Below are positions 1-25,098 of a stretch of 64,000 nucleotides of DNA, piece after piece. How positions within the stretch are numbered: position 1 is the stretch's first letter; each line of letters starts with the position of its first letter. The DNA comes from Acidimicrobiia bacterium (lineage in GTDB: Bacteria; Actinomycetota; Acidimicrobiia; Spongiisociales; ZC4RG35), in the NCBI GenBank assembly GCA_035512955.1, contig DATKCZ010000013.1:305-64304 (forward strand), written 5' to 3'. The position numbers were made by a program, and so were the translations under genes. Under the pieces are notes generated by a model. That model saw only the letters and a list, made by a program, of their open reading frames with translations, was not told where the DNA came from and made no database searches.

Positions 1-1
1 G

Positions 2-1708
2 CGCAGCGCCGTCGATGACCTGTTGGGGCCCGAAGAAGGCTTCGACGGGCGGGTCGTCTTCGGGGGTCGTGCCGCTCGGCAGCGGCGTCATCTGCTGCTG
101 CCTGCCCTCCACGCCGTCCAGGATGCCGCCGGCTCGGTGAGCAGGGGCGCACTGGCCTACATCTGTGAGCGGCTCACGGTGCCCCCGGCCGAGGCATACG
201 GTGTGGCCACCTTCTACGCGCTGTTCGACACCGACGGCCCCGGGGGCCCGTCGATCCACGTCTGTGATGACATCGTCTGTGCCCAATACGGGGCCGAGGA
301 TCTGTGCGCCGCCCTCGACGCGTCGGGCACGGTCTATGAGCGGAGCCCCTGTCTCGGTCAGTGTGACCGGGCGCCGGCGGCGATGTTCCACCAACCCGGC
401 ATCGGCTACGGCAATGCCGCGCCGGTCACACCTTCCTCGTTCGGGGCCCCCACCTTCGACGAGCTCCCTCCCGGTCTCGTCAACCAGGACCGGGAAGAAC
501 TGACGCTGCTGCGCCGCATCGGTGTGGTCGATCCCAGCTCCCTCGACGGCTACCTCGAGACCGGAGGGTTCGAGACCCTGGCCAAGGCACGGGCGATGGG
601 GCCGGAGGCGGTCATAGCCGCGTTGAAGACATCGGGGCTCAGGGGTCGTGGCGGAGCCGCATTCCCCATCGGTCTCAAATGGGAGGGTGTCCGTGAGGCC
701 AGGGGTGGCGACAAGTACGTGATCGCCAACGGCGACGAGTCCGAGCCGGGGACTTTCAAGGACCGTCTGCTGATGGAGGGCGATCCGTTCGCGCTGGTCG
801 AGGCGATGGCCCTCTACGGGTACGCCACCGGGGCCGGCAAGGGGTTCATCTACGTCCGCGGGGAGTATCCGACTGCGGAGAAGCGGCTCGAGAACGCCAT
901 CGCCCAGACCGTCGGCGCGGGTCTGATCGGTGACGGGTTCGACCTCGAGGTGCGGAGAGGCGCGGGGGCCTACATCTGTGGCGAGGAGACCGCCTTGTTC
1001 GCCTCCATCGAGGGACATCGCGGCGAGCCCCGGCAGAAGCCGCCGTTCCCCACCCAATCGGGGGTGTTTGGCAAGCCCACCGGCATCAACAACATCGAGA
1101 CGCTGCTCGCCGCTCTCGAAGTGATCGCCCGGGGAGGCGAGGCCTTCGCCGCGGTAGGGACCGAGCAATCGACCGGCCCCAAGCTGTTCTGTGTCTCCGG
1201 GGCCGTGGCCAGGCCCGGTGTCTACGAGGTCCCCTTCGGGACGACGCTCAGGGCTCTTCTCGCCCTCGCCGGTGGGATCAGGGATGGCGGTGATCTGGGT
1301 GCTGTGCTCATGGGCGGGGCGGCCGGTGTCTTCGCCGACCAGTCGGCGCTCGAGGTGCCCCTGACCTTCGAGGACACCAGCGCCGCGGGCACCACGCTGG
1401 GCTCGGGGGCGATCATATTCTTCGATGACCAGACCGATTTCGGGGGGGTGCTGGGCCGCATCGCCCGGTTCTTCAGAGATGAGTCCTGTGGCCAGTGTGT
1501 TCCATGTCGCATCGGCACCGTCCGTCAGGAGGAGGCGCTGGCCCGGCTGCGCGCCCACCGCCCCCTGGGCTCGGTGTCCGAGGAGAGAAGACGTCTCGAC
1601 GATCTGGCGGTGGTGATGACCGATGCCTCGATCTGTGGTCTCGGCCAGACCGCGGCCTCCGCGGTCCAGTCCGCGATGAAGCTAGGGCTCCCAGGAGTGC
1701 CGGCATGA
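2..1708 (+). CDS. NuoE-NuoF fusion flavoprotein (NAD-linked diaphorase, beta-subunit type of NAD-dependent formate dehydrogenase). It is 5'-partial because the frame is open to the window edge.
   Basis: The ORF track gives 23..1708, and the same frame has no stop back to nt 2. It has a NuoE-like 2Fe-2S Cys pattern (HVCDDIVC ... CLGQCDRAP). NuoF signatures are GGAAFPIGLKWE and ESCGQCVPCRIGT. It has an ATGA overlap with the next gene. Confidence 0.9.
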   Translation, partial: RSAVDDLLGPEEGFDGRVVFGGRAARQRRHLLLPALHAVQDAAGSVSRGALAYICERLTVPPAEAYGVATFYALFDTDGPGGPSIHVCDDIVCAQYGAEDLCAALDASGTVYERSPCLGQCDRAPAAMFHQPGIGYGNAAPVTPSSFGAPTFDELPPGLVNQDREELTLLRRIGVVDPSSLDGYLETGGFETLAKARAMGPEAVIAALKTSGLRGRGGAAFPIGLKWEGVREARGGDKYVIANGDESEPGTFKDRLLMEGDPFALVEAMALYGYATGAGKGFIYVRGEYPTAEKRLENAIAQTVGAGLIGDGFDLEVRRGAGAYICGEETALFASIEGHRGEPRQKPPFPTQSGVFGKPTGINNIETLLAALEVIARGGEAFAAVGTEQSTGPKLFCVSGAVARPGVYEVPFGTTLRALLALAGGIRDGGDLGAVLMGGAAGVFADQSALEVPLTFEDTSAAGTTLGSGAIIFFDDQTDFGGVLGRIARFFRDESCGQCVPCRIGTVRQEEALARLRAHRPLGSVSEERRRLDDLAVVMTDASICGLGQTAASAVQSAMKLGLPGVPA

Positions 1709-2670
1709 CCCTCACCGGAGCCGCCGTGACCACTATCACCGCGACGATCGACGGCCAGGAGGTGACCGTCGCCGCAGGGGAAACCATCCTCGAGGCCTGT
1801 CGCCGCTCGGGTGTCGACCTGCCCACCCTCTGTCACGGCCCCACACTGACACCGGCCAATGCATGCCGGGTATGTATGGTCGAGGTCGAGGGATCGCGGG
1901 CCCTGGTCCCCTCCTGCAGCCGGGCCCTGGACGAGGGCATGGTGATCAACACCGGCACCGAGCGCGCCAGACACAGTCGCCGCCTGGTCATGGAGCTCCT
2001 CGGCAGCGCCAGCCAGCTCGACCGGTCCGGTGACCGCGTCGACGCCTGGATGGAGTCTCACGGCGCCGACAGCGCTCGTTTCGGCGCGGCGGAGGCGGAG
2101 ACGCCCCGGAGCAAGCCGGTGCCGGGGCATCATCACCCTCCATCGCTCCGCGAGGCCGCCGGTGTCGCCGAGCCGGCGAAGGTCGAAGACGATCTCTACG
2201 TGCGTGACTACAGCCGGTGCATCCTCTGCTACAAGTGCGTCGACGCCTGCGGGGAACAGCACCAGAACACCTTCGCCATCGCCGTCGCGGGCCGGGGCTT
2301 CGACGCTCGCATCTCCACCGAGTTCGACGTCGCCCTGCCCGGATCGGCGTGTGTTTACTGCGGGAACTGCATCGCGGTGTGCCCCACCGGGGCACTCGAG
2401 GGCAAGATCGCCTGGGACATGAAGGAGAACGGGACCTGGGACGAGTCGACCCAAGAGGTCACCAGGACGGTTTGCTCCTACTGCGGTGTGGGCTGCAACC
2501 TCGACATCCACACCCAGGACGGCCGTATCGTCGATGTGAGCTCCCCACTCGACCACGAGGTGACGCTGGGCAACCTGTGCATAAAGGGCAGGTTCGGGTG
2601 GAGCTATGTCGCCAGTGGGATGGGGACGGAGGCCGGTGAGGGGCTCGGGGGGAGTGCTCCCCCCTCGTGA
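1705..2670 (+). CDS. Fe-S protein equal to the N-terminal part of an FdsA/NuoG-type formate dehydrogenase alpha subunit. It has 2Fe-2S, two ferredoxin-type 4Fe-4S sites and the Mo-enzyme cap 4Fe-4S, but ends before any molybdopterin domain.
   Basis: The ATG at 1705 overlaps the upstream stop, so the longer ORF 1495.. is an overlap artefact. Motifs are TIDGQEVTV..TLCH..CRVCMVEV, CILCYKCVDAC, CVYCGNCIAVCP and CSYCGVGCNL...LCIKGRFGW. The stop comes about 20 codons after the last motif. Confidence 0.85.
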   Translation: MTLTGAAVTTITATIDGQEVTVAAGETILEACRRSGVDLPTLCHGPTLTPANACRVCMVEVEGSRALVPSCSRALDEGMVINTGTERARHSRRLVMELLGSASQLDRSGDRVDAWMESHGADSARFGAAEAETPRSKPVPGHHHPPSLREAAGVAEPAKVEDDLYVRDYSRCILCYKCVDACGEQHQNTFAIAVAGRGFDARISTEFDVALPGSACVYCGNCIAVCPTGALEGKIAWDMKENGTWDESTQEVTRTVCSYCGVGCNLDIHTQDGRIVDVSSPLDHEVTLGNLCIKGRFGWSYVASGMGTEAGEGLGGSAPPS

Positions 2671-3464
2671 GCAACGCCGTCACGCCTCGACGGGTGGTGC
2701 AAGTCAGGGATCAGGTCCGGGCAATGGACGACACCCTGGTGGTCGAGGAACCGCTCGAGATCAGACTCGACGGCACCGCGCTGGCGGTGGTCATGAGGAC
2801 ACCCGGAGATGACGCCGACCTCGTTCTGGGGTTTGCCATCACCGAAGGGATCGTGACCACCCCCGATGCGGTCAAGCGGGTGGTGTCCCTGGGTGGTGGT
2901 CGATGGGACCTGGAGACCGTGGACGGGGTGAGCATCGACCCTGCCCAGTTTCAGCGGAACTTCTACAGCACGAGCTCTTGCGGGGTCTGTGGCAAGGCAT
3001 CGATCGACGCCATCCGCATCACCGGAGCCAAGCCGCCGACGGGCCCGGTGGTACCGGTGGAGATCTTCCTGTCATTGCCTCCCCGGCTGTTGGAGGCCCA
3101 GACCGCATTCCGCTCCACCGGAGGGCTCCACGCCGCCGCTGCTTTCGACTCCTCAGGGGAGATCGTGGCCGTCAGAGAGGACGTGGGCCGTCACAATGCG
3201 GTCGACAAGGTGGTCGGGCATCTCGCCCGGAAGGGCTGGCCGTTGCCGCCCCTGGGTCTGCTGGTCTCCGGCCGGGTCTCTTTCGAGATCACCCAGAAGG
3301 CGGCGGTGGCGGGAATCTCCCTGGTCTGCGGTGTCTCGGCAGCTTCCAGTCTGGCCGTCGAGCTCGCCGAGGAGTTCGAGATGACGGTCATCGGGTTCCT
3401 CCGGGAGGGCGGGTTCACCCTGTACACCGGAGGAGAGCGAGTGGGCGGACTCGAGTCGCGGTGA
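2667..3464 (+). CDS. fdhD: Formate dehydrogenase accessory sulfurtransferase FdhD
   Basis: Motifs are SSCGVCGKASID, GGLHAAAAF and DVGRHNAVDKVVG. The GTG start overlaps the upstream TGA. Confidence 0.9.
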   Translation: MSNAVTPRRVVQVRDQVRAMDDTLVVEEPLEIRLDGTALAVVMRTPGDDADLVLGFAITEGIVTTPDAVKRVVSLGGGRWDLETVDGVSIDPAQFQRNFYSTSSCGVCGKASIDAIRITGAKPPTGPVVPVEIFLSLPPRLLEAQTAFRSTGGLHAAAAFDSSGEIVAVREDVGRHNAVDKVVGHLARKGWPLPPLGLLVSGRVSFEITQKAAVAGISLVCGVSAASSLAVELAEEFEMTVIGFLREGGFTLYTGGERVGGLESR

Positions 3465-3479
3465 AGGCCTGACGCAGGT

Positions 3480-4025
3480 CTAGGGGCCCTCGGATCCGGC
3501 GAGCGCGATCAACTGCGAGATGGTCCGCCAGTTCCGCACCGTCGCCCTGACCCCGAGACGTCGCTCCAGCATCCCCTGATTGAGCTTCGACCGCCCCGAG
3601 CCATTGGGGAAGGCGAGATAGATCTCCCGACCCCGTCTTGTGAAGCGATCCGGCAGATAATCGTGGGCGTCGAGGGCGACATCGACTCCATGGGTGGGAA
3701 CCCGATCGAGAAACGCCACCTGAAGCAGACGCTGATCGAGACCGAGGTCGGAGAACGGGTGAGCCCTTCCCGTCTCGGCCAGTTCGGTGGACGAACGTGT
3801 CACCACCGGGATCTCGAAGCCGAACAGATCGCGAAGCGCCGGCTCCAACATCCCGACGACGCCCTGTTCGTCGAGCGCCGTCTCGAAGACCAGATTGCCC
3901 GACTGGGCATATGTCCTCGGATTGTCGAGCCCCCGTGCCGAGGCGAGGTCGCGAAGCTCGGCCATCGCCACCCTGTTGTGACCACCGACGTTGATCCCGC
4001 GCAACAGGGCGACTCGGATGGTCAA
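3480..4025 (-). CDS. DUF1697 family protein
   Basis: The N-terminus MTIRVALLRGINVGGHNRVAMAELR is typical of DUF1697. It has a 4-nt overlap with the upstream IclR gene. Confidence 0.75.
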   Translation of the reverse strand: MTIRVALLRGINVGGHNRVAMAELRDLASARGLDNPRTYAQSGNLVFETALDEQGVVGMLEPALRDLFGFEIPVVTRSSTELAETGRAHPFSDLGLDQRLLQVAFLDRVPTHGVDVALDAHDYLPDRFTRRGREIYLAFPNGSGRSKLNQGMLERRLGVRATVRNWRTISQLIALAGSEGP

Positions 4026-4765
4026 CGGGAGAGGGCCTCCGACAGGCGTCGGGCGGCGTCCGCCACCGCCTCACCGATCGCCTCCTCCCGGTCGGGCGCC
4101 GGGAATCGGTATGCCGGGCCATGCACGTGCATGGCCGCGGTTATCAGCCCGTTTCTCTCCAGGACCGGCGCTGCCACCGAGTTGATCCCCTCGACGAACT
4201 CCTCATAGACCCAGGCGTAGCCCTTCTCGCGGATCTCAAACAGGCGTTGTCGGACCTGGTCCCTGTCGGTCACGGTGTTGGGGGTCATCCGCACCAGCTC
4301 TCGGCCGAGGTAACGCTCCATCTGCTGCTCGGGCCAGTGAGCCATGATCACCAGGCCCGAGGGGACGAGGTGCATGGGGATGAGCTCCCCGGTCCAGTCC
4401 CGGACCTGAACCGGTTGGGCTGCCTCGGTCTGGTCCACATAGTGGACCTGGTACCCGTCCGGGATGGCGATTCCCGCGGCTTCGCCGGTGAGGGCGGTCA
4501 GCTCATCGAGATAGGGGCGGGAGAAGGCGGTCAGCTGGCCCGGCCCCCCCGCTGCCGAAGACAGTCGTTGCACGATTGGGCCCAGGCGATAGCGACGACC
4601 GTCTTCGTCGCGTTCGACCGCATCCATCTCTTCGAGGGTGGCGAGAAGCCGGGCCACGGTGCTCTTGGGGAGACCGACCCGGCGCGCCATCTCTGAGAGC
4701 CCGGCCGGCGACTGGGCCAGGGCCTCGACGATCTTGATGGCGCGGGCTACCGACTCGACGGCCAT
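4022..4765 (-). CDS. IclR family transcriptional regulator
   Basis: It has an N-terminal wHTH (LSEMARRVGLPKSTVARLLATLEE) and a C-terminal IclR effector-domain length and pattern. Confidence 0.85.
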   Translation of the reverse strand: MAVESVARAIKIVEALAQSPAGLSEMARRVGLPKSTVARLLATLEEMDAVERDEDGRRYRLGPIVQRLSSAAGGPGQLTAFSRPYLDELTALTGEAAGIAIPDGYQVHYVDQTEAAQPVQVRDWTGELIPMHLVPSGLVIMAHWPEQQMERYLGRELVRMTPNTVTDRDQVRQRLFEIREKGYAWVYEEFVEGINSVAAPVLERNGLITAAMHVHGPAYRFPAPDREEAIGEAVADAARRLSEALSR

Positions 4766-4813: not shown

Positions 4814-5680
4814 CTAGCCGAGCGAGGCGAGCATGTCCTGACGCCACTGCTCGGTGGCCTCCACCCGATTGAAGGTGTAGACGTGGAAGCCTTCGATGTT
4901 GGCGGTCGGATCGTCGAGCAGCGGGGCCAGTCCCACCACGAGGTCATCGGGGCTGTACCCGCCCGGGCGCACCAGCTTTCCCGCCAGACCCTTGTTCTTG
5001 GCGAGAAACCGGGCCGACGGCCCCACCCCGATGCGCAGCGACAGCGTGATCAGCTTGCTCATCTCTGCCACGCCGGGGATCCCGACCCACACCCCGAGCC
5101 CGATCCCCGTCTCGCGGAGCGACTCGACCCAGTCACGGATCGACTCGGGGACGAAGCACATCTGGCTGGTGACGTAGGACGCGTACGGGGCCTTCTCCTC
5201 GAGGGCGTTCCGCATGGTGAGGTCGTCGACGATATGATGACCCTCGGGATAGCCGGGCACACCGATCTCGGTCAGCCCATGCCCGATCTGCTCCATCGCG
5301 GTGAGGAGGGCAAGACCGTCGAAGAACTCCCCCTGGGCCTCACCGTCACCACCCACCACGAATGCCTTGTGGATCCCGCCCCGATCCAGCCTGTCGAGGA
5401 TCTTCCCCAACTCCTGCCGACCCGTGGTGAGACGTGCCGAGAGGTGGGGGACGACATCGAAGCTTCTGTGCTTGAGCTCGACGGTCAGGTCGACCGTGGC
5501 CGCCATGCCCTTTCCCGGTGAGGCGGTGACCGACACCGTGGCCCCCTCGGGGAGGAAGTGAGATTGATCCAAGGCGTTCTTGAGCGGGATCAACTCGTAT
5601 TTGGGCCGCTCGAGCAGACGGCGCAGGGCGGCGACATGGGCGCTCTCGAGGTGCCGCAGGTCGAGGGACTTCTGTCTCAT
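4814..5680 (-). CDS. Methylenetetrahydrofolate reductase family protein (MetF-like)
   Basis: The internal ATG at 5680 forms an ATGA overlap with the MttB stop. The N-terminal 54 codons of the 342-aa ORF overlap the upstream gene. It has an MTHFR-like TIM-barrel pattern (YELIPLKN.., VTASPGKG, HLSARL, VVGGDG). Confidence 0.75.
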   Translation of the reverse strand: MRQKSLDLRHLESAHVAALRRLLERPKYELIPLKNALDQSHFLPEGATVSVTASPGKGMAATVDLTVELKHRSFDVVPHLSARLTTGRQELGKILDRLDRGGIHKAFVVGGDGEAQGEFFDGLALLTAMEQIGHGLTEIGVPGYPEGHHIVDDLTMRNALEEKAPYASYVTSQMCFVPESIRDWVESLRETGIGLGVWVGIPGVAEMSKLITLSLRIGVGPSARFLAKNKGLAGKLVRPGGYSPDDLVVGLAPLLDDPTANIEGFHVYTFNRVEATEQWRQDMLASLG

Positions 5681-7200
5681 GACGCATCCGAGTCGGGGAA
5701 CAAGTCCTTCCGCTCCCCGATCCAGGTTGCCAACCTGTGGTCGAGGTCCTCGTCGAGTGGCGGCGGCTGGTAGTCCGAGAGCATCTGGCGCCATCGCTCG
5801 TGGGCGCGGCCGGCGGCATCGCGGCCCCCCTCGCCCTCCCACTGCTCGAAGCTGTTGCTGTCGGAGGTGTCGGAACGCCAGAAGGCCTTCTCGAAGTTGG
5901 CCAGGGTGTGCTCGGCGCCGAGGAAGTGCTGTCCGGGGCCGGTGCTCCTGATCGCCTCCATCGCCTGGCCGTTCTCGGAGAGGTCGACCCCACCGACCAG
6001 CGCTCCGGCCATCCCGGCCATGTCGGCGTCGAGGATGAACTTCTCATAGCCCATCACCAGACCCCCCTCCAGCCAACCGGCGGTGTGTAGTACGAAATTG
6101 GTCCCGGCGGCCAACGTTGGCAAGAAGGTGGCGGCGCTCTCATAGGCGGCCTGGGAGTCGGTCACCTTGGAGGCGGTCAGGTTCCCGCCGCTGCGAAAGG
6201 GCACCCCGAGCCGTCGAGCCAGGGCGGCAACGATCCACAGGACCAGGGCCGGCTCGGGTGTGCCAAAGGTGGGGGCGCCGGACTGCATCGATATCGAGCT
6301 GGCGAAGGACCCGAGCACCACCGGTGCCCCGGGTCTCACGATCTGGGTGAAGGCGATGCCGGCCAGGGCCTCGGCCAGGGTCTGTGCCGCGGTGGCGGCC
6401 ACCGTCACCGGGGCCATCGCCCCGGCGAGGATGAACGGTGTGATCAGGGTGGCCTGGTTGTTCTCCGCGTATACCTTGGCCGACCCCAGCATGGCCCGGT
6501 CCCAGGAGAGTGGTGAGTTGGCGTTGCACAGCGAGAGGATCACCGTGTTCTCCTCGACGAAGTCATCTCCGAAGACGATCCTGGCGATCTCAACGGTGTC
6601 CTCGGCTCGTTCGGGCGCGGTCACCGCGCCCATGAATGGCTTGTCGCTGTGTTTGACGTGGCTGTAGATCATGTCGAGGTGCCTCTTGTTCACCGGCAGG
6701 TCCACCGGCTCACACAGGGTGCCGCCGGCATGGTGGAGCTGGGGTGACAGATAGGTGAGCTTGGCGAAGTTGTGGAAGTCCTCGATGGTGGCATAGCGCC
6801 GCCCCTCCTCCAGGTTGCGGATGAAAGGGGAGCCGTAGGCGGGGGCGAAGACCATGTGCGGGTCTCCGATTTCGACCGATCGCTTCGGGTTGCGGGCATG
6901 CTGGGTGAATCTGGCCGGGGCACCGGCGGCGAGATCCCGACACATGCCCCTGGGGAACCTGACCCTGGAGCCGGCCACCACGGCACCCGCCGAGGCGAAG
7001 ATCTCCACCGCCTCGGGGAAGTCGATGATCTCCACGCCGACTTCCTCGAGGATGGTGTCGGCGTTGTCCTCGATGATGCCCAGACCCTCCTCCCCGAGAA
7101 CCTCGTAAGGGGGGATGGAGCGGGTCAGGTAAGGGAGGTAGGACGCAGCCCCGGATGACCTGGCCGCCCGTCTCGCCTGACGTCCGCGTCGCTCAGCCAT
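5677..7200 (-). CDS. MttB-family (trimethylamine methyltransferase superfamily) methyltransferase, non-pyrrolysine type
   Basis: It matches MttB-like sequence along the full length (ILSLCNANSPLSWD, ITPFILAGAMAPVT, SGAPTFGTPEP, HTAGWLEGGL, GPGQHFLG). There is no in-frame TAG. The ATG at 7200 overlaps the upstream stop by 8 nt. Confidence 0.9.
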   Translation of the reverse strand: MAERRGRQARRAARSSGAASYLPYLTRSIPPYEVLGEEGLGIIEDNADTILEEVGVEIIDFPEAVEIFASAGAVVAGSRVRFPRGMCRDLAAGAPARFTQHARNPKRSVEIGDPHMVFAPAYGSPFIRNLEEGRRYATIEDFHNFAKLTYLSPQLHHAGGTLCEPVDLPVNKRHLDMIYSHVKHSDKPFMGAVTAPERAEDTVEIARIVFGDDFVEENTVILSLCNANSPLSWDRAMLGSAKVYAENNQATLITPFILAGAMAPVTVAATAAQTLAEALAGIAFTQIVRPGAPVVLGSFASSISMQSGAPTFGTPEPALVLWIVAALARRLGVPFRSGGNLTASKVTDSQAAYESAATFLPTLAAGTNFVLHTAGWLEGGLVMGYEKFILDADMAGMAGALVGGVDLSENGQAMEAIRSTGPGQHFLGAEHTLANFEKAFWRSDTSDSNSFEQWEGEGGRDAAGRAHERWRQMLSDYQPPPLDEDLDHRLATWIGERKDLFPDSDAS

Positions 7201-9181
7201 CGGAGCGTTCCCTCGCACCCGGGCGTCTCCGCTTTCCCCCGGTGCGGGACGGCAGATCGACCACGGTCGATAGATTCGGGTAGCCCGCGGTCTTGTGGGG
7301 GATTCCGAGTGCAGCCACGAAGTGCTCCTGGAACCTCGGCTCGGTGGCGGTCTCGATCTTCTCCACCCTCTCGACCAGCCGTTCGACCTCGTCACGAGCG
7401 GTCTTGGAGAGCAATGCCATGATCGCCCCCGCCCCGGCGGCGTTACCGGCCCCGGAGACCGATCCCAGGTCGCAGTCGGGGATCATGCCCAGCACCATGG
7501 CGTACATGGGGTCGATGTGGTTGCCGAACGCCCCAGCCAGCCGGATCTGGTCGACGGTGTCGGTCCCGTAATGGTCCATGAGCAGTCTCGCCCCGGCGAG
7601 CAGGGCGGCCTTGGCCAACTGCACCGCACGGACATCCGCCTGGGTGACCAGTATCTGAGGGTCGGTCCACAGCACGTAGGAGTAGGTGCGCCCATCGGGG
7701 ACCAGGCGGTCGGTGGGGGCGTCTCCGGAGATCGCACCGTCCTCATCGATGACACCGGCGAGGAACAGCCCGGCGATCACCTCGATGATCCCCGAGCCGC
7801 ATATCCCGGTCACCGGCGTCGTCTCGATCTCCCCGTAGAAGCCATCCTCATCAGACCAATGCTCCCCACCGACCAAGCGTATGCGTGGCTCGAGTGTCTC
7901 CCGATCGATTCGAACCCGTTCGATGGCCCCCGGGGCGGCTCTCTGACCGGAGGAGATCTGGGCCCCCTCGAAGGCGGGCCCGGTGGGGCTCGATGCGGCG
8001 AGGAGCCGTTCCGAGTTACCGAGCACGATCTCGGCGTTGGTACCCACGTCCACGAGGAGTTGGATGGCCTCACTGCGCTGGGGCGCCTCCGAGAGCATGG
8101 CGGCGGCAGCGTCGGCTCCGACGTGTCCGGCGACACAGGGCAGCACGTAGACCCGGCCCCGGGGATGGACCTCGATTCCGAGAGCGGCGGCCTCTATCCG
8201 CACCGAATCGCCGGTGGCCAGGTTGAACGGTGCTGCGCCCAGCGGGGTCGGGTCGAGCCCGAGGAAGAGGTGGTGCATTATCGGATTCCCCACCAACACC
8301 ACCTCGAGGACGTCTGCGCGCACCACACCCGCCTCGTCGACCAGCTCACCGATGGCGTCGTCGATGGCGGTCTGCACGATCCTGGTCAACTCAGCGGCTC
8401 CCCCCTCGTTCATCATGGCGTAGGAGACCCGGCTCATCACATCTTCCCCCAACCTGATCTGGGGGTTCATCGCCCCATGGGTGGCGATGATCTGCCCGGT
8501 GAGGAGGTCGCACAGGTGCCCGGCGATGGTCGTCGACCCCACATCGAATGCCACCCCCAAGGTGCGATCGTGAAACCCGGGCCATACCGCGGTGATGTCG
8601 CTCTCGTCGTGCACGGCCACGGTCACCGCAGACTTGCCCTCGATCAGCGACGACTGGAGGTCGGGCAAGACCCTCGGATCGAGATCCAACGCGGTCAGGT
8701 CCCATTGCCCTTCGAGGGCGGTGAGCAGCCGCCGACGGTCGCTCATGGAATCCCCCAATATCGATTCCTCCATCTCGACGTAGTACAGCCGCACAACGGG
8801 GTCGACGTCGATGTCGGGAACCTCGGGCCGCTTGCGGACCACCTGCCGGTGGACCCGGCTGCCGGCGGGCACGTCGATCACCACGTTTCCGAGAACAGTC
8901 ATCTGGCACCCGAGGCGATTTCCGTCTTCGAGTGGCCGGGCACCGGCGTAGTTCAACTCGACGAGGTTGGGCTCAGAGACCCTGCTGGGGTCGAGGGCGA
9001 TGGTCTTGGACGACCCGAGCTGGATCTGACATCGGCCACAAATGCCGCGTCCGCCGCAAATGGAGTCGAGGTCGACTCCCAGGGCGCGGGCCGCGTCGAG
9101 GACGTTGGTCCCGACTGCTATCTCACCCTGTCTCCCCGACGGGGTGAAGAGGACGCGAACCTCGCCCTCGGCCCCGGTCAT
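7193..9181 (-). CDS. Corrinoid reductive activase, RACo/COG3894 type (N-terminal plant-type 2Fe-2S ferredoxin plus ASKHA ATPase/DUF4445)
   Basis: The N-terminus carries CGGRGICGRCQIQ, and the large C-terminal domain is acetate/sugar-kinase-like. Both ends have ATGA-type overlaps. Confidence 0.85.
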   Translation of the reverse strand: MTGAEGEVRVLFTPSGRQGEIAVGTNVLDAARALGVDLDSICGGRGICGRCQIQLGSSKTIALDPSRVSEPNLVELNYAGARPLEDGNRLGCQMTVLGNVVIDVPAGSRVHRQVVRKRPEVPDIDVDPVVRLYYVEMEESILGDSMSDRRRLLTALEGQWDLTALDLDPRVLPDLQSSLIEGKSAVTVAVHDESDITAVWPGFHDRTLGVAFDVGSTTIAGHLCDLLTGQIIATHGAMNPQIRLGEDVMSRVSYAMMNEGGAAELTRIVQTAIDDAIGELVDEAGVVRADVLEVVLVGNPIMHHLFLGLDPTPLGAAPFNLATGDSVRIEAAALGIEVHPRGRVYVLPCVAGHVGADAAAAMLSEAPQRSEAIQLLVDVGTNAEIVLGNSERLLAASSPTGPAFEGAQISSGQRAAPGAIERVRIDRETLEPRIRLVGGEHWSDEDGFYGEIETTPVTGICGSGIIEVIAGLFLAGVIDEDGAISGDAPTDRLVPDGRTYSYVLWTDPQILVTQADVRAVQLAKAALLAGARLLMDHYGTDTVDQIRLAGAFGNHIDPMYAMVLGMIPDCDLGSVSGAGNAAGAGAIMALLSKTARDEVERLVERVEKIETATEPRFQEHFVAALGIPHKTAGYPNLSTVVDLPSRTGGKRRRPGARERSDG

Positions 9182-10074
9182 GTCCCGCTTCTACGTCCGG
9201 TGCGTCGACGCTCCCCATTGCCTCCTCCGGAAGGCCGGCGATAGGTCTTGATCCAGCCAACACAGTCCACGTCGTTGCCGTTCAAGACGTTGGCCGCCAT
9301 CACCGCCTGGCGCACCTCGGGCTCGAGGGGATTGGTGATCGCCGAGGTAAGCCCGCTCGCGGCCGCCATGGCGAGAAAGGTGGCGTTGATCCCGATCCGG
9401 TTGGGGAGGCCAAAGCTGATGTTGGAGGCCCCGACGGTGGTGTTGACCTCCAGCTCGTGGCGGAGACGGGAGACGAGACGAAACACCTGTCGCCCAGCGG
9501 TCGGCATCGCACCGATCGGCATGACCAGAGGGTCGACAACCACGTCTTCTCGGGGGATGCCGTGGTCGGCCGCCCGGTTGACGATCTTCTTCGCCACCTC
9601 GAACCTGACGTCGGGATCTTCGGAGATACCGGTCTCGTCGTTGCTTATGGCCACGACCGCCGCTCCATACTTGGCAATGAGCGGAAGCACCGCCTCGAGA
9701 CGCTCATCCTCTCCGGTGACCGAGTTGACCAAGGGCTTTCCCTCATACACGGCGAGGCCTGCGGCCAGTGCGTCGACGATGGAAGAGTCGATCGAGAGAG
9801 GGACGTCCGTGATGGACTGGACCAGTTTCACGGTGGCGGCGAGGATCGCCGGCTCGTCGGCGAGGGGTATCCCGGCATTGACATCGAGCATGTGGGCGCC
9901 CGCCTCGACCTGGGCGGCGGCGTCGGCAGCCACCCGTGTGTAGTCGCCTTTTCTCATCTCCTCGGCGAGGAGCTTGCGCCCGGTCGGGTTGATGCGCTCT
10001 CCGATGATGACGAACGGATGGTCGAACCCGATAACCACATCCCGGGTGGCCGAGCTCAGCACGGTCAGTGTCAT
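9178..10074 (-). CDS. Methyltetrahydrofolate:corrinoid methyltransferase (pterin-binding DHPS-like domain, MetH/AcsE/MtgA-like)
   Basis: Motifs are IIGERINPTG, MLDVNAG, PLSIDSS, LVNSVTGE and GASNISFGLP. Confidence 0.85.
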   Translation of the reverse strand: MTLTVLSSATRDVVIGFDHPFVIIGERINPTGRKLLAEEMRKGDYTRVAADAAAQVEAGAHMLDVNAGIPLADEPAILAATVKLVQSITDVPLSIDSSIVDALAAGLAVYEGKPLVNSVTGEDERLEAVLPLIAKYGAAVVAISNDETGISEDPDVRFEVAKKIVNRAADHGIPREDVVVDPLVMPIGAMPTAGRQVFRLVSRLRHELEVNTTVGASNISFGLPNRIGINATFLAMAAASGLTSAITNPLEPEVRQAVMAANVLNGNDVDCVGWIKTYRRPSGGGNGERRRTGRRSGT

Positions 10075-10691
10075 GTGGAGAGCCGGTGCCGGGGGGAGAG
10101 TTGCACCAGGGCCGGCTCCATCTCGCCATGACCCACGAGCCGGCGCTCGAAGCGCAGTTTGAGCCGCATGGCCGCCACCCTGGCTGCCTGGGTGAGGGCG
10201 GGGTCATCGACCTGGGCCAGGTGGACGACTCTCTCGTAGTTGCCGAAGTAGTCCTCGAGCAGCTCGGGCCAGCGGTCTAGCCCGAGCCCTTGCCAGATGA
10301 GACGATCGAAGTGCCTGGTCAGGTAGTCGGTGAGATACAGAGTGCCGGGCTCGTCTTCGTGCATGAGGTCGAACGCCTCGATCCCGGCATAGAACTGGTA
10401 ACAGTGCGCACCGGGCAACCGTTCGACCTCGAACTCGTCGAGGACCTCGTCCAACAGACCACCCGTCCCACAGTCCCCATAGGCGACGAAAACGGTGTCG
10501 TGGCCCCTCGCAGCCTCGAGCTTGGCCCGTACCGCGTCAGGGATCTTCGCAGGAGTGTTGTGCAGGATGGCCGGCAGGCATTCCACCCTGATGTTGTGCA
10601 GACCGTTGCGGGAGACGATCGCGAGCAGTTCGCGGGCGAGGGCCCCGCAGCCGATGACGAGAACGGAGGGAGAATCAAGCCGCGCTGCCAC
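10071..10691 (-). CDS. DUF1638 domain protein
   Basis: Motifs are VLVIGCGALARE .. VFVAYGDCGTGG .. GAHCYQF. The start is uncertain: GTG 10691 is preferred, with alternatives ATG 10739 or ORF start 10772. Confidence 0.7.
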   Translation of the reverse strand: MAARLDSPSVLVIGCGALARELLAIVSRNGLHNIRVECLPAILHNTPAKIPDAVRAKLEAARGHDTVFVAYGDCGTGGLLDEVLDEFEVERLPGAHCYQFYAGIEAFDLMHEDEPGTLYLTDYLTRHFDRLIWQGLGLDRWPELLEDYFGNYERVVHLAQVDDPALTQAARVAAMRLKLRFERRLVGHGEMEPALVQLSPRHRLST

Positions 10692-11367
10692 GCCGCTCCG
10701 TGACCAGCCGCTTCGCCGTGTCGGCGGCGACGGCGGCATCCCGGCAGTAGGCGTCGGCCCCGACCGCCTCACCGAACTCCTCGTTGAGAGGGGCTCCGCC
10801 CACCATGACGATGTAGTGATCGCGGATTCCCTTGTCGACCATCGTGTCGATCACCACCTTCATATAGGGCATGGTCGTGGTCAGCAGCGCCGACATGCCC
10901 AAGATGTCGGGTTTGTGCTGGTCGAGTGCCTGGATGAAGGCATCGGCGTCGGTGTTGATCCCGAGGTCGAACACCTCGAAGCCGGCCCCCTCCAGCATCA
11001 TCGCCACCAGGTTCTTGCCGATGTCGTGGATGTCGCCCTTCACGGTCCCGATGACCACTGTGCCGATCGTCTCCGCCCCGGTCTCGATGAGAAGTGGCCG
11101 GAGGACGGCCATGCCGGCCTTCATCGCCTTGGCGGCGAGAAGGACCTCGGGCACGAACAGGATCCCGTCTCTGAAGTCGATCCCGACGATGCGCATCGCC
11201 TCCACCAGAGCCTCATTGAGCACCCGGGTGGGAGTCCACCCCCGGTCGAGCAGGATCCGGGTCCCCTCGTCGATCTCATCGGCCATGCCGTCGTAGAGGT
11301 CGTCGTGCATCTGGGCGACGAGGTCGTCGTCGGAGAGAGTGGATAGGTCCAGCTCGACTTCGCTCAT
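10675..11367 (-). CDS. Cobalamin-binding corrinoid protein (MtgC/MttC-like)
   Basis: It has the B12-binding DxHxxG motif (GDIHDIGKN) and MSALLTTT. The ATG at 11367 is preceded by a GAGGAGG Shine-Dalgarno sequence. Confidence 0.9.
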   Translation of the reverse strand: MSEVELDLSTLSDDDLVAQMHDDLYDGMADEIDEGTRILLDRGWTPTRVLNEALVEAMRIVGIDFRDGILFVPEVLLAAKAMKAGMAVLRPLLIETGAETIGTVVIGTVKGDIHDIGKNLVAMMLEGAGFEVFDLGINTDADAFIQALDQHKPDILGMSALLTTTMPYMKVVIDTMVDKGIRDHYIVMVGGAPLNEEFGEAVGADAYCRDAAVAADTAKRLVTERRGSAA

Positions 11368-12359: not shown

Positions 12360-12680
12360 TCAGGGCGCCCACCCTCCATTGGTCACATAGGAGGTGATCA
12401 GTTCGACTGGGAATGCCTGGTCGACCCGCTTCGCCTCGATCCGGACCTCGGACTCGAGGTCGTCTCCGCAGCTCCTGGTCTCTTCACGCCATTCGGCGAT
12501 GTACTCGTCGGTGGTCGTCTTGCCCGCGATGGTCGCTGCCCTGTCCACGGCGACCATGAAACGGTCGGGGAGCGGTGCGCTGGCCCGATTCCGGCCAGCC
12601 CGTGCCTTGACCTGGGCGGGGATGTCTCGCCAGTAGATCACGGTGACGTGCGGGGTCTCCCTCCTCTCTCCACGTCCCAT
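12360..12680 (-). CDS. Small protein of the so-called 'virulence factor' family (about 100 aa, YWRDIPAQV motif)
   Basis: It carries VTVIYWRDIPAQVKA ... YIAEWRE. The ATG lies 3 nt after the fhs stop. The family assignment comes from memory of similar annotated proteins. Confidence 0.6.
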   Translation of the reverse strand: MGRGERRETPHVTVIYWRDIPAQVKARAGRNRASAPLPDRFMVAVDRAATIAGKTTTDEYIAEWREETRSCGDDLESEVRIEAKRVDQAFPVELITSYVTNGGWAP

Positions 12681-19137: not shown

Positions 19138-20697
19138 TCAGTAGTCGGTCTCGACCCCGCCCTCAGCCCGCCTTCGCTCCACGAACTCCTCCAACTCGGC
19201 TCGAACCGCAGGGTCCATCGGCGGCTCCTCGTAGCTGTCCAAGAAGACGTCGACCAGTTCGATCATCTTCCCCTTGGCCTCGGGCTTGCCGGCCTCTTCC
19301 CAGCTCTCGTAGTTGCGCCAGTCGGAGAGCAGCGGCTGATAGAAGGCGGTGCGGAAGCGCTGTAGCGTGTGGGGCGTGCCGAAGAAGTGGCCGCCGGGAC
19401 CGACGTCGCGCACCGCATCGAGGGCGAGACCGGCCTCGCTGAAGTCGATGGGGTCCATGAACTTCTGCACCATCGCGCACAGGTCTGCATCGAGGATCAT
19501 CTTCTCGAAAGAGGCACGCAGACCCCCTTCCATCCACCCCACCGCATGGAGGATCAAGTGGGCACCGCCCATCACCGCTCCCCACAATGAGAACACCGAC
19601 TCGTACGCCGCCTGAGCATCGAGGGCGTTGGCCGCGTTGACCCCCGAGGATCGATATGGCAGGCCGTACCGCCGGGTCATTTGACCGGTGATCATCGATG
19701 TCTGGATGAACTCGGGGGTCCCGAAGGCCGGCGCCCCGCTCTGCATGTCGACATTGGAGGTGAAACCCCCGTAGATCACGGGGGCCCCGGGCCGGACCAC
19801 CTGGGTGAAGACGATGCCGGCGAGCGCTTCGGCGTTGTGCTGGGCGAGCGCACCAGCCACCGTCACCGGGGCCATCGCCCCGGCGAGAGTGAACGGGGTG
19901 ATGACGATCACCTGGTTGCGCGAGCTGAACTCGATGATGCCCTGGAGCATCGGGTGGTCGTAGCGGAGCGGAGAGCTGGCGTTGATGACGCTGAGTATCG
20001 ATGGTTGCTCGTCGAGAGTCGCATCATCGACCTGACGGGCGATCTTGATCATCTCCAGGGCGTCGGTGTTCCTCTGGGCCCCCAGGCTGTATGCGTGGAT
20101 CACCCGGTCGGACAGAGTCAGCATGTCGTAGAGAGCGTCGAGGTGACGGACCGAGGCATGGATATCCACCGGCTCGACGGGATATCCGCCCCACAGGTGC
20201 ACGGTGTTGATGGTGTGCCCCAAACGGAGCAGTCTCTGGAAGTCTTCGCGGTTCCCGACCCGGCGACCCCCGGCCTCATCACTCACATTGGGCGGGCTGG
20301 ACACTGCGGTGAACGCCACCGAGCTGGCCCCCATGTGGACATTGCGTTCCGGGTTCCTGGCGTGAATCGTGAACTCCGAGGGGGCTGTCGAGATCTTCTC
20401 CTCGATGAAGTCGGGATCGAATCGAACCCGCTCGGAGTCGGGGTCGACCCGGGCACCGGCATCGGCGAGCATCCGGCGCGCCTCGGGGTTCAAGAAGTCC
20501 ATGCCGATCTCGGAGAGGATCTGGAGCGACGTCCGATGGATGGCCTCGATCTCGTCCTCACCGACGAGGTCGACGGGGTCGAATCGTCGGCTGGGCTGCT
20601 TCCACGGAGCCTGTTCGGGGACGACCCGCCCCTCGGGCCGGTCGCCACCCCGTTGCCGGCGGCCCCTGCGTCTCGGCTGTGTCTCGTCCGCCGTCAT
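19138..20697 (-). CDS. MttB-family methyltransferase, non-pyrrolysine, paralogue 2
   Basis: It has the same family blocks as 5677..7200 (ILSVINASSPLRYD, ITPFTLAGAMAPVT, SGAPAFGTPEF, HAVGWMEGGL, GPGGHFFG). There is no in-frame TAG. Confidence 0.9.
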   Translation of the reverse strand: MTADETQPRRRGRRQRGGDRPEGRVVPEQAPWKQPSRRFDPVDLVGEDEIEAIHRTSLQILSEIGMDFLNPEARRMLADAGARVDPDSERVRFDPDFIEEKISTAPSEFTIHARNPERNVHMGASSVAFTAVSSPPNVSDEAGGRRVGNREDFQRLLRLGHTINTVHLWGGYPVEPVDIHASVRHLDALYDMLTLSDRVIHAYSLGAQRNTDALEMIKIARQVDDATLDEQPSILSVINASSPLRYDHPMLQGIIEFSSRNQVIVITPFTLAGAMAPVTVAGALAQHNAEALAGIVFTQVVRPGAPVIYGGFTSNVDMQSGAPAFGTPEFIQTSMITGQMTRRYGLPYRSSGVNAANALDAQAAYESVFSLWGAVMGGAHLILHAVGWMEGGLRASFEKMILDADLCAMVQKFMDPIDFSEAGLALDAVRDVGPGGHFFGTPHTLQRFRTAFYQPLLSDWRNYESWEEAGKPEAKGKMIELVDVFLDSYEEPPMDPAVRAELEEFVERRRAEGGVETDY

Positions 20698-20793
20698 GCG
20701 CTCACCTTCGAAGGGAACCTAACAGTGCACCGCAGGGCCCGCTTTCCGTAGTGTGCCCGGTTGAGAGCAAGAAGAGCTGATGAGGAGAGCGAG

Positions 20794-21570: not shown

Positions 21571-22008
21571 TCAGGAGGAGAGGCCGAGCCCCGTTCCGGC
21601 GTCGAAGATCACCTCTCGGATGTATGTGGAGTACGAGCGTGACGGGAGGATCAGGTAGGAGGGCACCTCTTCGTGGTCGTCTCTCACCAGTTCGGTGACG
21701 ACACCGGCGAAGAGTGTCCGGGCTGCTGCGCCGTTGGGGAACATCCCCTCACCGAGATCGAGGGCGCACACCCGGTTGATCAGCTCCGCGGCTCGCCGAC
21801 CGGTGAGCCGGAACAGAGCCCGGACGTGGGTCAGTTCGACGGACTCACCACCGGGCCGGTCACCGAGAACCGTCGACTCTCCAGGGCTCACCGACCACAT
21901 CAGATGCTCGCCCGAGCCTCGCGAGGTTCCCGGGCGTATGTCTTCGCCGGCGGAGAAGACCCTCCACTTGGATGTCGAGGAGAGGTCGGCGAAGTCGAGG
22001 TCAGCCAC
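21571..22008 (-). CDS. soxG: Sarcosine oxidase gamma subunit
   Basis: Its position after soxA, its size and its SoxG-like sequence (LTHVRALFRLTG, RTLFAGV) support the call. Confidence 0.75.
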   Translation of the reverse strand: MADLDFADLSSTSKWRVFSAGEDIRPGTSRGSGEHLMWSVSPGESTVLGDRPGGESVELTHVRALFRLTGRRAAELINRVCALDLGEGMFPNGAAARTLFAGVVTELVRDDHEEVPSYLILPSRSYSTYIREVIFDAGTGLGLSS

Positions 22009-24841: not shown

Positions 24842-25098
24842 CGGTTGTCTCCGACGAGGGCGATGCTGCGTATCTCGTTGGTGCTGCGATGTCGCTCCAA
24901 CATCAGGTAGCGCCGGCACCCGGCGAGGTGAAACCAGCGCTCGGACACCCAGCCCGAGACGTTGGCCCTCATGTAGAGGTATCGGCGCCACGTGGCGGGA
25001 TCGGTCTCCCCCACCTGGGGACGGGGACGGACCTCGCCACCGAATGTGAACTCGTCGCTGTTGCGGGGACCGCAGTTGGGGCAGATTATGACCAACAT
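24838..25098 (-). CDS. soxD: Sarcosine oxidase delta subunit
   Basis: It has the MLVIICPNCGPRNSDEFTFGGE zinc-ribbon start typical of SoxD. Confidence 0.9.
   Translation of the reverse strand: MLVIICPNCGPRNSDEFTFGGEVRPRPQVGETDPATWRRYLYMRANVSGWVSERWFHLAGCRRYLMLERHRSTNEIRSIALVGDNR

Follow-up and report, generated by a model that had tools for sequence, protein, structure and literature searches.

What does a pyrrolysine-free MttB-superfamily protein demethylate in a soil Acidimicrobiia bacterium, and could the cobalamin-dependent system around it operate in air? We analysed a 64,000-nucleotide stretch of DNA (the window) in which such a protein is encoded within an operon of six minus-strand genes joined by start/stop overlaps of 4-17 nt. 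All genes, coordinates, and junctions given in a preliminary description of the window were recovered, and Pfam and NCBIfam domain assignments agreed with the functions proposed there for the six products, listed here in operon order.

11367..10675, minus strand: MtgC-like corrinoid (cobalamin-binding) protein, 230 aa; PF02607 and PF02310; GDIHDIGKN
10691..10071, minus strand: DUF1638 protein, 206 aa; PF07796, 86 bits
10074..9178, minus strand: MtgD-like methyl-corrinoid:THF methyltransferase, 298 aa; PF00809, 107 bits; NF005719
9181..7193, minus strand: RACo-type ATP-dependent reductive activase, 662 aa; Fer2, RACo_linker, Raco_middle, RACo_C_ter
7200..5677, minus strand: MttB1, pyrrolysine-free MttB-superfamily methyltransferase, 507 aa; PF06253, 719 bits
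5680..4814, minus strand: divergent MTHFR-like protein, 288 aa; PF02219, 35 bits (cutoff 24)

Conservation and extent of the operon

From 5' to 3', the junctions are GTG...TGA (17 nt), ATGA, ATGA, ATGGCTGA (8 nt), and ATGA, with GAGGAGGA just upstream of the corrinoid gene ATG. The operon is real and not a product of chance: the six frames have a GC3 of 0.75-0.87, independent gene calls on four metagenome contigs gave the same six proteins and gene lengths at 97-99% identity, and the gene order is kept in other genomes. The colinear order holds in 8 of 9 loci from Actinomycetota and 7 of 13 from Chloroflexota and is rare in Pseudomonadota (1/38 loci), while the MTHFR-like gene lies directly 3' of MttB in 10 of 15 Actinomycetota, 11 of 15 Chloroflexota, and 0 of 40 Pseudomonadota loci. 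No terminator-like site was found on the minus strand inside the operon, and its genes are likely to be co-transcribed. The transcription unit may comprise eight genes rather than six, because an IclR gene starts 48 nt past the MTHFR-like stop and a DUF1697 gene overlaps IclR by 4 nt.

4022..4765, minus strand: IclR-family regulator; HTH_IclR and IclR_C
3480..4025, minus strand: DUF1697 protein; PF08002, 116 bits; start overlaps the IclR stop at a TTGA junction

In several Acidimicrobiia loci the IclR gene comes after the operon in the same orientation; in Chloroflexota it is upstream and divergent. It is probably part of the operon unit or its regulator, and here too the minus strand showed no terminator-like site.

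The corrinoid core is orthologous to a Sinorhizobium meliloti cluster

Mausz et al. (PMC12478193) describe an S. meliloti cluster, termed MtgBCDE, with which the operon proteins share 46-77% identity. The corrinoid protein, of the single-chain MtaC/MtgC type, has 1y80 as its top PDB match (192 bits) and shares 77% identity with the cobalamin-binding protein adjoining DUF1638 in S. meliloti. At least 95% of 42 orthologues share its DxHxxG (within GTVKGDIHDIGKNLV), SALLTTT, and GGAP motifs, and the protein would carry the methyl group as CH3-Co(III). The pterin-binding methyltransferase scored 356 bits against NCBIfam NF005719 (cutoff 259) and is 64% identical to an S. meliloti 'methyltetrahydrofolate cobalamin methyltransferase'. 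Its top PDB matches were MeTr (2yck, 152 bits) and the MetH folate domain (144 bits), with no MtgA chain among its matches at E <= 1e-10.

The activase consists of an N-terminal 2Fe-2S ferredoxin domain (Cys42/48/51/92), linker, middle, and ASKHA domains. It matches RACo (3zyy) over its full length with 307 bits and shares 53% identity with the ASKHA protein of S. meliloti; its score against AcsV, 368 bits, is below the cutoff of 800. Five residues of the DUF1638 protein (C15, H44, C74, H96, and C97) show 94-100% conservation across 150 family representatives, and the protein is 46% identical to its S. meliloti counterpart. No solved fold relative was found for its AlphaFold model (pLDDT 84). 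Phaeobacter genetics tie DUF1638 to B12 reactivation (PMC5764234), and the protein may be an accessory factor of the B12 system.

The MttB1 pocket and neighbouring genes point to glycine betaine

As the preliminary description had stated, the MttB1 reading frame contains no internal stop and thus no amber codon; Leu341 occupies the pyrrolysine position (X334 of 7xcl, TMA methyltransferase). MttB1 scored 262 bits against TIGR02369 (Pyl-MttB), under the cutoff of 525, and is 61% identical to S. meliloti MttB. Its PDB match to 4yyc spans the whole protein (residues 3-504 to 21-523) and scores 686 bits, ahead of Desulfitobacterium hafniense MtgB (423 bits) and Pyl-MttB (7xcl, 122 bits). Of the four betaine-binding residues defined experimentally in MtgB (PMC13080624), MttB1 keeps three: Y97, R312, and H348 correspond to Y122, R336, and H372, which are invariant in MttB1 and 85 orthologues. 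The fourth, F356, is replaced by G380, with Gly in all 85 orthologues. An F356L substitution in D. hafniense MtgB raises the Km several hundred-fold (PMC13080624); the nearby Trp375 of MttB1 might stand in for the lost side chain.

A second MttB paralogue and an O2-dependent sarcosine oxidase, both noted previously, were present in the window together with other genes of N-methylglycine and C1 metabolism.

1..3464, plus strand: FdhD and subunits of an NAD-linked molybdenum formate dehydrogenase (a 51K/FdsB-like one truncated at the start of the window; an Fe-S/FdsA N-terminal part); Pfam on two 96-99% identical contigs, tblastn mapping
12360..12680, minus strand: PF13769 ('Virulence_fact') small protein, 106 aa; 68 bits
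12684..14453, minus strand: formate-tetrahydrofolate ligase; PF01268 on a 99% identical contig, tblastn 99% identity
14609..17002, plus strand: dimethylglycine/sarcosine-dehydrogenase-like enzyme; DAO, FAO_M, GCV_T domains
20697..19138, minus strand: MttB2, second, solitary Pyl-free MttB paralogue, 519 aa; PF06253, 658 bits
21571..26359, minus strand: heterotetrameric-type sarcosine oxidase cluster (soxB, soxD, soxA, candidate soxG); TIGR01373 508 bits, TIGR01372 850 bits, both just below family cutoffs
26359..25103, minus strand: soxB; sarcosine oxidase cluster ORF
25098..24838, minus strand: soxD; PF04267, 87.5 bits
about 24841..22001, minus strand: soxA; sarcosine oxidase cluster ORF
22008..21571, minus strand: soxG candidate; ORF only, no Pfam match
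59477-59944: F420H2-dependent quinone reductase, in keeping with the F420 background described before

The dimethylglycine-dehydrogenase-like gene, soxBDA, the formate-THF ligase gene, and the formate dehydrogenase and FdhD genes all lie within 20 kb of the operon. The dehydrogenase-like enzyme, with partial NCBIfam matches to soxA, gcvT, and soxB, is a probable second demethylation step, and DAO-GCV_T enzymes recur near orthologous operons in relatives. Formate-THF ligase would belong to a C1 oxidation branch, with formate dehydrogenase at the end of the route. The pocket residues and these neighbours together therefore suggest that glycine betaine is the most likely MttB1 substrate. The preliminary description had called the substrate unknown, which is too cautious given this probable assignment. 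No recognisable betaine transporter of the OpuA or BCCT type was found within the window.

MttB2 is 40% identical to MttB1, has S133, R349, H384, and G392 in the pocket, and presumably uses the corrinoid protein of the operon; its PDB matches include 4yyc, at 382 bits, and MtgB, at 326 bits. The PF13769 gene sits between the DUF1638 and methyltransferase genes in most Actinomycetota and Chloroflexota relatives; in S. meliloti it adjoins MTHFR genes, and its product is 41% identical to the window's protein. Its WRDIPAQV motif is conserved, and it may be an accessory gene of the corrinoid system that has moved out of the operon in this lineage.

A divergent MTHFR-like protein probably oxidises methyl-THF

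The top PDB match of the MTHFR-like protein was S6MTHFR (7xg9, type 4) with 99 bits, compared to about 25 bits for canonical MTHFRs (Thermus MTHFR, 25). S6MTHFR oxidises CH3-THF downstream of THF-dependent demethylases (PMC11868366). Because this closest solved relative works in that direction, the proposal that the MetF-like protein oxidises methyl-THF gained support and is probable on sequence grounds. Only P49 and F269 of seven examined S6MTHFR residues are kept, with L48, R78, F215, C219, and P268 changed, so membership in type 4 is not established. No FolD or MtdA gene was seen within the window.

Proposed pathway and alternatives

We consider it probable, with reasonable rather than high confidence, that the operon encodes a full cobalamin-dependent methyl-transfer system for glycine betaine demethylation, of the kind represented by aerobic MtgBCD. 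MttB1 would bind glycine betaine and transfer an N-methyl group to the Co(I) corrinoid protein, yielding dimethylglycine and CH3-Co(III), and the MtgD-like methyltransferase would pass the methyl group to tetrahydrofolate. The MTHFR-like enzyme would then oxidise CH3-THF to CH2-THF, after which formate-THF ligase and NAD-linked formate dehydrogenase would convert the one-carbon unit to formate and CO2. Removal of the two remaining methyl groups could fall to the dimethylglycine-dehydrogenase-like enzyme and soxBDA(G) sarcosine oxidase. With ATP and its 2Fe-2S domain, the RACo-type activase would re-reduce Co(II) formed on oxidation, which is expected to be frequent in air. The DUF1638 and PF13769 proteins may act as helpers of the corrinoid system, and the IclR protein probably regulates the unit. 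The general logic already proposed for the locus, in which a methylated amine gives up its methyl group to the Co(I)-corrinoid and then to THF, ATP drives reactivation, and the MTHFR works oxidatively, fits all of the evidence.

The same machinery might serve a different MttB1 substrate, a methylammonium compound with a carboxylate such as proline betaine, gamma-butyrobetaine, carnitine, or dimethylglycine itself; glycine betaine would then be a matter for other enzymes, if it is used at all. The whole MttB1 clade lacks F356 of the betaine aromatic pair, R312 and H348 do not discriminate betaines, being kept in MtcB, MtpB, MthB, and MtyB (PMC13080624), and the closest structure, 4yyc, carries no assigned substrate in its name. 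Aerobes also have up to seven PF06253 paralogues, thought to serve different methylated compounds (PMC12478193). However, Y97 is kept in MttB1 while the aromatic pair is not conserved in other MttB specificities (PMC13080624), the operon has as neighbours enzymes acting on dimethylglycine and sarcosine, which arise specifically from betaine demethylation, and it is MttB1, not MttB2, that is embedded with the corrinoid machinery across phyla. We therefore regard another substrate as rather unlikely. Still less probable is that the core (corrinoid protein, pterin methyltransferase, activase, and DUF1638) is mainly a split cobalamin-dependent methionine synthase with a homocysteine-binding MtgE encoded elsewhere and MttB as an add-on. 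The core is essential for methionine synthesis in Phaeobacter and Ruegeria, where mutation of DUF1638 or of the RamA-like gene causes methionine auxotrophy (PMC5764234, PMC12478193), but no PF02574 homocysteine methyltransferase was present among the window ORFs scanned, the MttB and MTHFR-like genes are translationally coupled to the core, and C1-oxidation and N-methylglycine genes surround it. Marine bacteria, moreover, usually lack mtgE near mtgBCD (PMC12478193). A dual role in methionine synthesis and betaine demethylation is possible and compatible with our preferred reading.

Very little speaks for an anaerobic host with a Wood-Ljungdahl-type pathway of which the locus forms the methyl branch, and in which formate dehydrogenase, formate-THF ligase, MTHFR, MeTr, corrinoid protein, and RACo would lead to acetyl-CoA. 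The enzyme families overlap with that branch, and two matches fall below their cutoffs, that of the activase to AcsV at 368 bits and that of the methyltransferase to the CODH/ACS methyltransferase subunit at 144 bits. Against this, no CODH/ACS or two-subunit CFeSP genes occur within the window, the corrinoid protein is single-chain, and the operon includes an MttB. The window also holds soxBDA, F420H2:quinone reductase, and NAD-linked formate dehydrogenase, and aerobic rhizobia, Paracoccus, and Virgifigura host orthologous clusters. Glycine betaine demethylation in air remains our preferred reading: aerobic operation is suggested by the sox cluster, by the aerobic hosts of orthologues, and by the host class, judging from cultured Acidimicrobiia. 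No terminal oxidase was found within the 64-kb window.

Comparison with known systems

The preliminary description had treated pyrrolysine-free MttB systems as confined to strict anaerobes and the aerobic context as new, a claim that does not hold: aerobic Ruegeria pomeroyi needs MtgC and MtgD to grow on glycine betaine (Mausz et al. 2025; PMC12478193). PF06253 MtgB, RamA, DUF1638, and MetF2 are induced there on betaine, choline, and carnitine, while knockouts covered only mtgC and mtgD, not MttB genes; in other aerobes such genes are colocated or in operons, and 5% of ocean mtgC reads were assigned to Actinomycetota (PMC12478193). The operon is a further member of this system, described in 2025 in marine and root-nodule proteobacteria. 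The systems of R. pomeroyi DSS-3, Phaeobacter inhibens, and S. meliloti (PMC12478193), compared here through S. meliloti sequences, have the same parts: Pyl-free PF06253 MtgB, single-chain MtgC, PF00809 MtgD, a RamA/RACo-like ASKHA activase, DUF1638, and an MTHFR paralogue (MetF2) for methyl-THF oxidation, associated alike with dimethylglycine, sarcosine, and THF C1-oxidation genes. The window differs in its host, an actinomycetotal soil MAG lineage of class Acidimicrobiia, in having MtgC, DUF1638, MtgD, activase, MttB, and MTHFR in one overlapping operon, and in lacking MtgE nearby. Its MTHFR is of a different, divergent type from the S. meliloti MetF and MTHFR C-terminal-domain proteins. The novelty is modest and lies in the host phylum, a compact colinear order typical of Actinomycetota and Chloroflexota, the divergent MTHFR, and hints on DUF1638 and PF13769.

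Anaerobic MtgABC of D. hafniense (MtgB 2qne, 9yce) shares the first half-reaction, the TIM-barrel MttB fold, Y97, R312, and H348, a DxHxxG corrinoid protein, and ATP-dependent reductive activation. It differs in having F356 where MttB1 has Gly, whereas the window adds O2-dependent sarcosine oxidase and a second methyltransferase of the MeTr/MetH-folate-domain type. Pyl-MttB/MttC of Methanosarcina (7xcl, 7xcn) shares superfamily PF06253 and the logic of methylating a cognate corrinoid protein, but MttB1 has no in-frame UAG and carries Leu341 at Pyl334, and the predicted acceptor is THF, not coenzyme M. RACo of Carboxydothermus hydrogenoformans has the same four-domain architecture and N-terminal 2Fe-2S Cys motif as the window's activase, whose client would be a small MtgC-type corrinoid protein rather than CFeSP. 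Finally, S6MTHFR of Sphingobium lignivorans SYK-6 (PMC11868366) and the MTHFR-like protein are both encoded beside a THF-linked demethylase, and CH3-THF oxidation is expected for both.

Organization and extent of the operon

The six minus-strand genes of the proposed corrinoid methyl-transfer operon have the same boundaries as in the preliminary description; domains are from Pfam and NCBIfam searches:

11367..10675, minus: corrinoid protein (MtgC-like), B12-binding_2 and B12-binding domains, motif GDIHDIGKN
10691..10071, minus: DUF1638 protein
10074..9178, minus: pterin-binding methyltransferase (MtgD-like), PF00809; NF005719 at 356 bits (cutoff 259)
9181..7193, minus: activase, 662 aa; Fer2, RACo_linker, Raco_middle and RACo_C_ter domains
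7200..5677, minus: MttB1, PF06253 at 719 bits
5680..4814, minus: methylenetetrahydrofolate reductase (MTHFR)-like protein, PF02219 at 35 bits

The successive junctions read GTG...TGA (17 nt), ATGA, ATGA, ATGGCTGA and ATGA. GC3 was 0.75-0.87 across the six frames, the GC content of the operon is that of the remaining window, and gene callers recovered these six protein lengths on four metagenome contigs (97-99% identical). No terminator-like sites were found on the minus strand inside the operon. Two further genes follow on the same strand:

3480-4765, minus: IclR regulator and DUF1697 protein

Since IclR lies only 48 nt past the stop codon of the MTHFR-like gene and DUF1697 overlaps IclR by 4 nt, the transcription unit may exceed six genes. 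IclR is kept near the operon, downstream in Acidimicrobiia and upstream and divergent in Chloroflexota. An Rfam scan of the window returned no match, so the operon is not under cobalamin riboswitch control. A sigma-70 promoter scan also returned no match, a result that is uninformative for an actinobacterium at 66% GC.

Activase, methyltransferase, MTHFR-like and DUF1638 proteins

The activase is a full-length homologue of RACo (3zyy, 307 bits), with the N-terminal 2Fe-2S, linker, middle and C-terminal ASKHA domains of that family in order by Pfam and a C-x5-C-x2-C...C motif formed by Cys42, Cys48, Cys51 and Cys92. The PDB matches of the pterin-binding methyltransferase were MeTr and MetH folate domains, with no MtgA chains among them at E <= 1e-10 and an MtrH-family match of 20 bits. 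By this indirect comparison, the operon methyltransferase belongs with the MeTr and MetH folate domains and not with MtgA.

The best solved relative of the MTHFR-like protein was S6MTHFR (7xg9, 99 bits), which oxidises CH3-THF produced by THF-dependent demethylases (PMC11868366). The comparison covered R78 and the conserved type-4 motifs (L48-P49, F215, C219 and P268-F269), which fall in loop beta2-alpha3, in helix alpha8 and in loop beta8-alpha11. Because P49 and F269 alone (2/7 residues) were retained in the pairwise alignment, the protein was not classed as a type-4 member. As a candidate MetF2-type paralogue it was compared with the MTHFR of S. meliloti only, and gave no match there; its gene is coupled to that of MttB1.

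In the DUF1638 protein, Cys15, His44, Cys74, His96 and Cys97 occur in 94-100% of 150 family representatives and Cys38 in 67%, a pattern that hints at a metal or Fe-S site. A Foldseek search of its AlphaFold model (pLDDT 84) against the PDB gave generic alpha/beta matches only (TM <= 0.33) and no functional lead. An NCBI entry from an Acidimicrobiia metagenome-assembled genome matches the DUF1638 protein at 100% identity.

Genomic neighbourhood

The operon is surrounded by genes for one-carbon and methylated amine oxidation, among other functions:

1-3464: NAD-linked formate dehydrogenase subunits and FdhD
operon neighbourhood: formate-THF ligase
operon neighbourhood: DAO-FAO_M-GCV_T enzyme, dimethylglycine/sarcosine dehydrogenase type
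11598-12356, plus: PhnD-like (PF12974) solute-binding-fold protein, divergent from the operon
21571-22008, minus: candidate soxG, 145 aa; overlaps the soxA stop by 8 nt, no Pfam match
24838-25098, minus: soxD, 86 aa, between soxB and soxA; PF04267 at 87.5 bits
59477-59944, plus: F420H2-dependent quinone reductase; PF04075 at 132 bits

The context elements named in the preliminary description, namely a second MttB, a sarcosine oxidase cluster and an F420 background, here in the form of an F420H2-dependent quinone reductase, are all present. Together, soxD and the candidate soxG would complete a sarcosine oxidase cluster of the heterotetrameric type. No terminal oxidase was found within the 64 kb; soxB, soxD, soxA and the F420H2:quinone reductase are present, and orthologues occur in aerobic isolates. 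A luciferase-like gene beside MttB2 (20752-21567, plus) was considered as F420 evidence and set aside for its weak score, about 54 bits to F420-dependent LLM families against cutoffs of about 220; the PF04075 gene better supports an F420 background. The match of the PhnD-like protein begins at profile position 14, without a signal peptide, and no ABC partner genes lie near its gene. It could serve in the cytoplasm, as a binding protein or as a sensor.

MttB1 and its likely substrate

As the preliminary description had reported, the MttB1 frame runs uninterrupted, with no internal stop, and the protein aligned end to end with PDB 4yyc. Leu341 aligns with pyrrolysine X334 of the Methanosarcina enzyme (7xcl), and MttB1 falls outside the pyrrolysine-dependent trimethylamine methyltransferases, with no in-frame UAG and a TIGR02369 score of 262 bits (cutoff 525). 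No tRNA genes were found in the window. The closest MttB homologues were proteins from Acidimicrobiia metagenome-assembled genomes. Placement of MttB1 was made against the PDB anchors 4yyc, 2qne/9yce and 7xcl only.

Mutagenesis and a ligand-bound structure have shown how MtgB of D. hafniense holds betaine: Y97 and F356 make cation-pi contacts, and R312 and H348 bind the carboxylate (Picking et al. 2026, PMC13080624). The equivalents of Y97, R312 and H348 (Y122, R336 and H372) were invariant in MttB1 and 85/85 orthologues. MtgB F356 corresponds to Gly380 in MttB1 and in all 85 orthologues, and the full four-residue betaine motif is thus not present. Trp375, three residues past His372, may preserve betaine function despite the loss of F356. 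The preliminary description had regarded the substrate as unknown; on the strength of the conserved Tyr, Arg and His and of the adjacent genes for dimethylglycine, sarcosine and C1 oxidation, we consider glycine betaine the most likely substrate. The missing Phe limits this assignment to a probable one, and action of MttB1 on a different betaine is an unlikely, if real, alternative.

Two other readings concern the pathway as a whole. In Mausz et al. (2025, PMC12478193), the core of the R. pomeroyi system also forms, with MtgE, a split methionine synthase. No PF02574 (homocysteine methyltransferase) domain was detected among the scanned window ORFs, and we judge it very unlikely that methionine synthesis is the primary role of the core in this context. 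A dual role in demethylation and methionine synthesis is possible. A reading as the methyl branch of a Wood-Ljungdahl pathway is hardly credible and was rejected because neither CODH/ACS nor a two-subunit CFeSP was present among the Pfam-scanned window ORFs, whereas sox genes are present.

The second paralogue lies outside the operon:

19138-20697, minus: MttB2, solitary, pyrrolysine-free, 40% identical to MttB1, without its own corrinoid protein

The MttB2 pocket keeps the carboxylate-binding Arg and His and has Ser at the position of Tyr97, which suggests a different substrate. MttB2 probably acts on another methylated compound, borrowing the corrinoid protein of the operon. The neighbours of its homologues on Mesorhizobium and Phaeobacter plasmids include GcvT and, beside a Mesorhizobium homologue, genes for an Ldh-family oxidoreductase and for 2OG and Rieske oxygenases; these contexts offer no clear clue to its substrate.

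Distribution across phyla and a possible cassette

A scan for MttB relatives, limited to one genome per species, yielded at least 587 loci. Over the best aligned segment, the 80 that were kept share 63-84% identity with MttB1. Their hosts are Acidimicrobiia, Gaiellales, Chloroflexota (Limnocylindrales), Polarisedimenticolia and numerous Pseudomonadota, with Virgifigura deserti and Denitromonas iodatirespirans among the isolates. Plasmid and replicon records added relatives from Sinorhizobium, Paracoccus, Mesorhizobium and Azoarcus. The gene order MtgC-DUF1638-(PF13769)-methyltransferase-activase-MttB was found in 8/9 loci of Actinomycetota, 7/13 of Chloroflexota and 1/38 of Pseudomonadota. An MTHFR-like gene directly 3' of MttB showed a similar distribution (10/15, 11/15 and 0/40 loci, respectively). 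In Pseudomonadota, MttB is mostly divergent from, or far from, the core genes.

The PF13769 gene in this order has a counterpart in the window:

12360-12680, minus: small PF13769 ("Virulence factor") protein, outside the operon and 1.7 kb upstream in this lineage

Its WRDIPAQV motif is conserved, and it lacks any conserved Cys. The protein goes with the system in several phyla (comparison loci L010, L013-L020, L025-L037 and others). Its gene sits between those for DUF1638 and the methyltransferase in the majority of operons from Actinomycetota and Chloroflexota, and in the S. meliloti cluster (L005, 7111-7413) it adjoins MTHFR genes. PF13769 is not known to be treated in the two papers on this system.

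The corrinoid protein (10675-11367) was 77% identical to that of S. meliloti (L005, 10662-11360) and its identity over the remaining loci retrieved was 72-92%. Such identity is unusually high for phyla this distant, and suggests either horizontal transfer of a cassette or very strong constraint.

We tentatively propose, as an idea more speculative than probable, that in Actinomycetota and Chloroflexota the aerobic betaine demethylase is a self-contained 7-8-gene cassette (MtgC, DUF1638, PF13769, MtgD, RACo, MttB, an MTHFR of a new type and, optionally, IclR) that has moved between phyla, and in which DUF1638 as a metal or Fe-S partner and an obligatory PF13769 protein sustain Co(I) under oxygen. 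If so, maintaining Co(I) chemistry under oxygen would be a function so far assigned to neither DUF1638 nor PF13769. The compact operon, which brings every component together, DUF1638 and PF13769 among them, is a convenient start for in vitro reconstitution.

Comparison with the aerobic MtgBCD system

Glycine betaine is among the most abundant osmolytes of soils and oceans. How aerobes take off the first of its methyl groups became clear as late as 2025, and for proteobacteria alone. With the locus described here, the cobalamin-dependent route would reach soil Acidimicrobiia and, judging from synteny, Chloroflexota, Gaiellales and others, extending the B12 demand and betaine turnover of the pathway to major uncultured soil lineages.

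In Mausz et al. (2025, PMC12478193), R. pomeroyi growing aerobically on glycine betaine requires the cobalamin-binding MtgC and the pterin-binding MtgD, and it induces PF06253 proteins (MtgB), a RamA-like activase, a DUF1638 protein and MetF2, a paralogue of MTHFR. That paper describes the genes as colocated in other aerobes, "even in operons", as in S. meliloti, and gives Actinomycetota 5% of ocean mtgC reads. Ellenbogen 2021 says nothing about aerobes.

The reference record for S. meliloti, CP090106.1 (L005), is labelled "S. meliloti plasmid pSymB" in PLSDB at 3.72 Mb and, judged by that size, looks like a mislabelled chromosome; it holds an MtgBCDE cluster and bmt.

Identity to the S. meliloti cluster was 77% for MtgC, 64% for the methyltransferase, 61% for MttB, 53% for the activase, 46% for DUF1638 and 41% for PF13769, so the operon is an orthologue of the described aerobic system, not a new kind. 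Both systems have a pyrrolysine-less PF06253 MtgB and a PF00809 MtgD resembling MetH module 1. Judged against the S. meliloti MtgBCDE cluster, the stand-alone MtgC with DxHxxG, PF02607 and PF02310 belongs to the proteobacterial-type clade. The RamA-like (DUF4445/ASKHA) activase and DUF1638 are both encoded within the operon here. The methyl-transfer mechanism of the preliminary description stands, and its novelty has been overtaken by the 2025 publication: relative to the known aerobic system, what is new is the phylum, the compact gene order and the divergent MTHFR, with the pathway concept unchanged.
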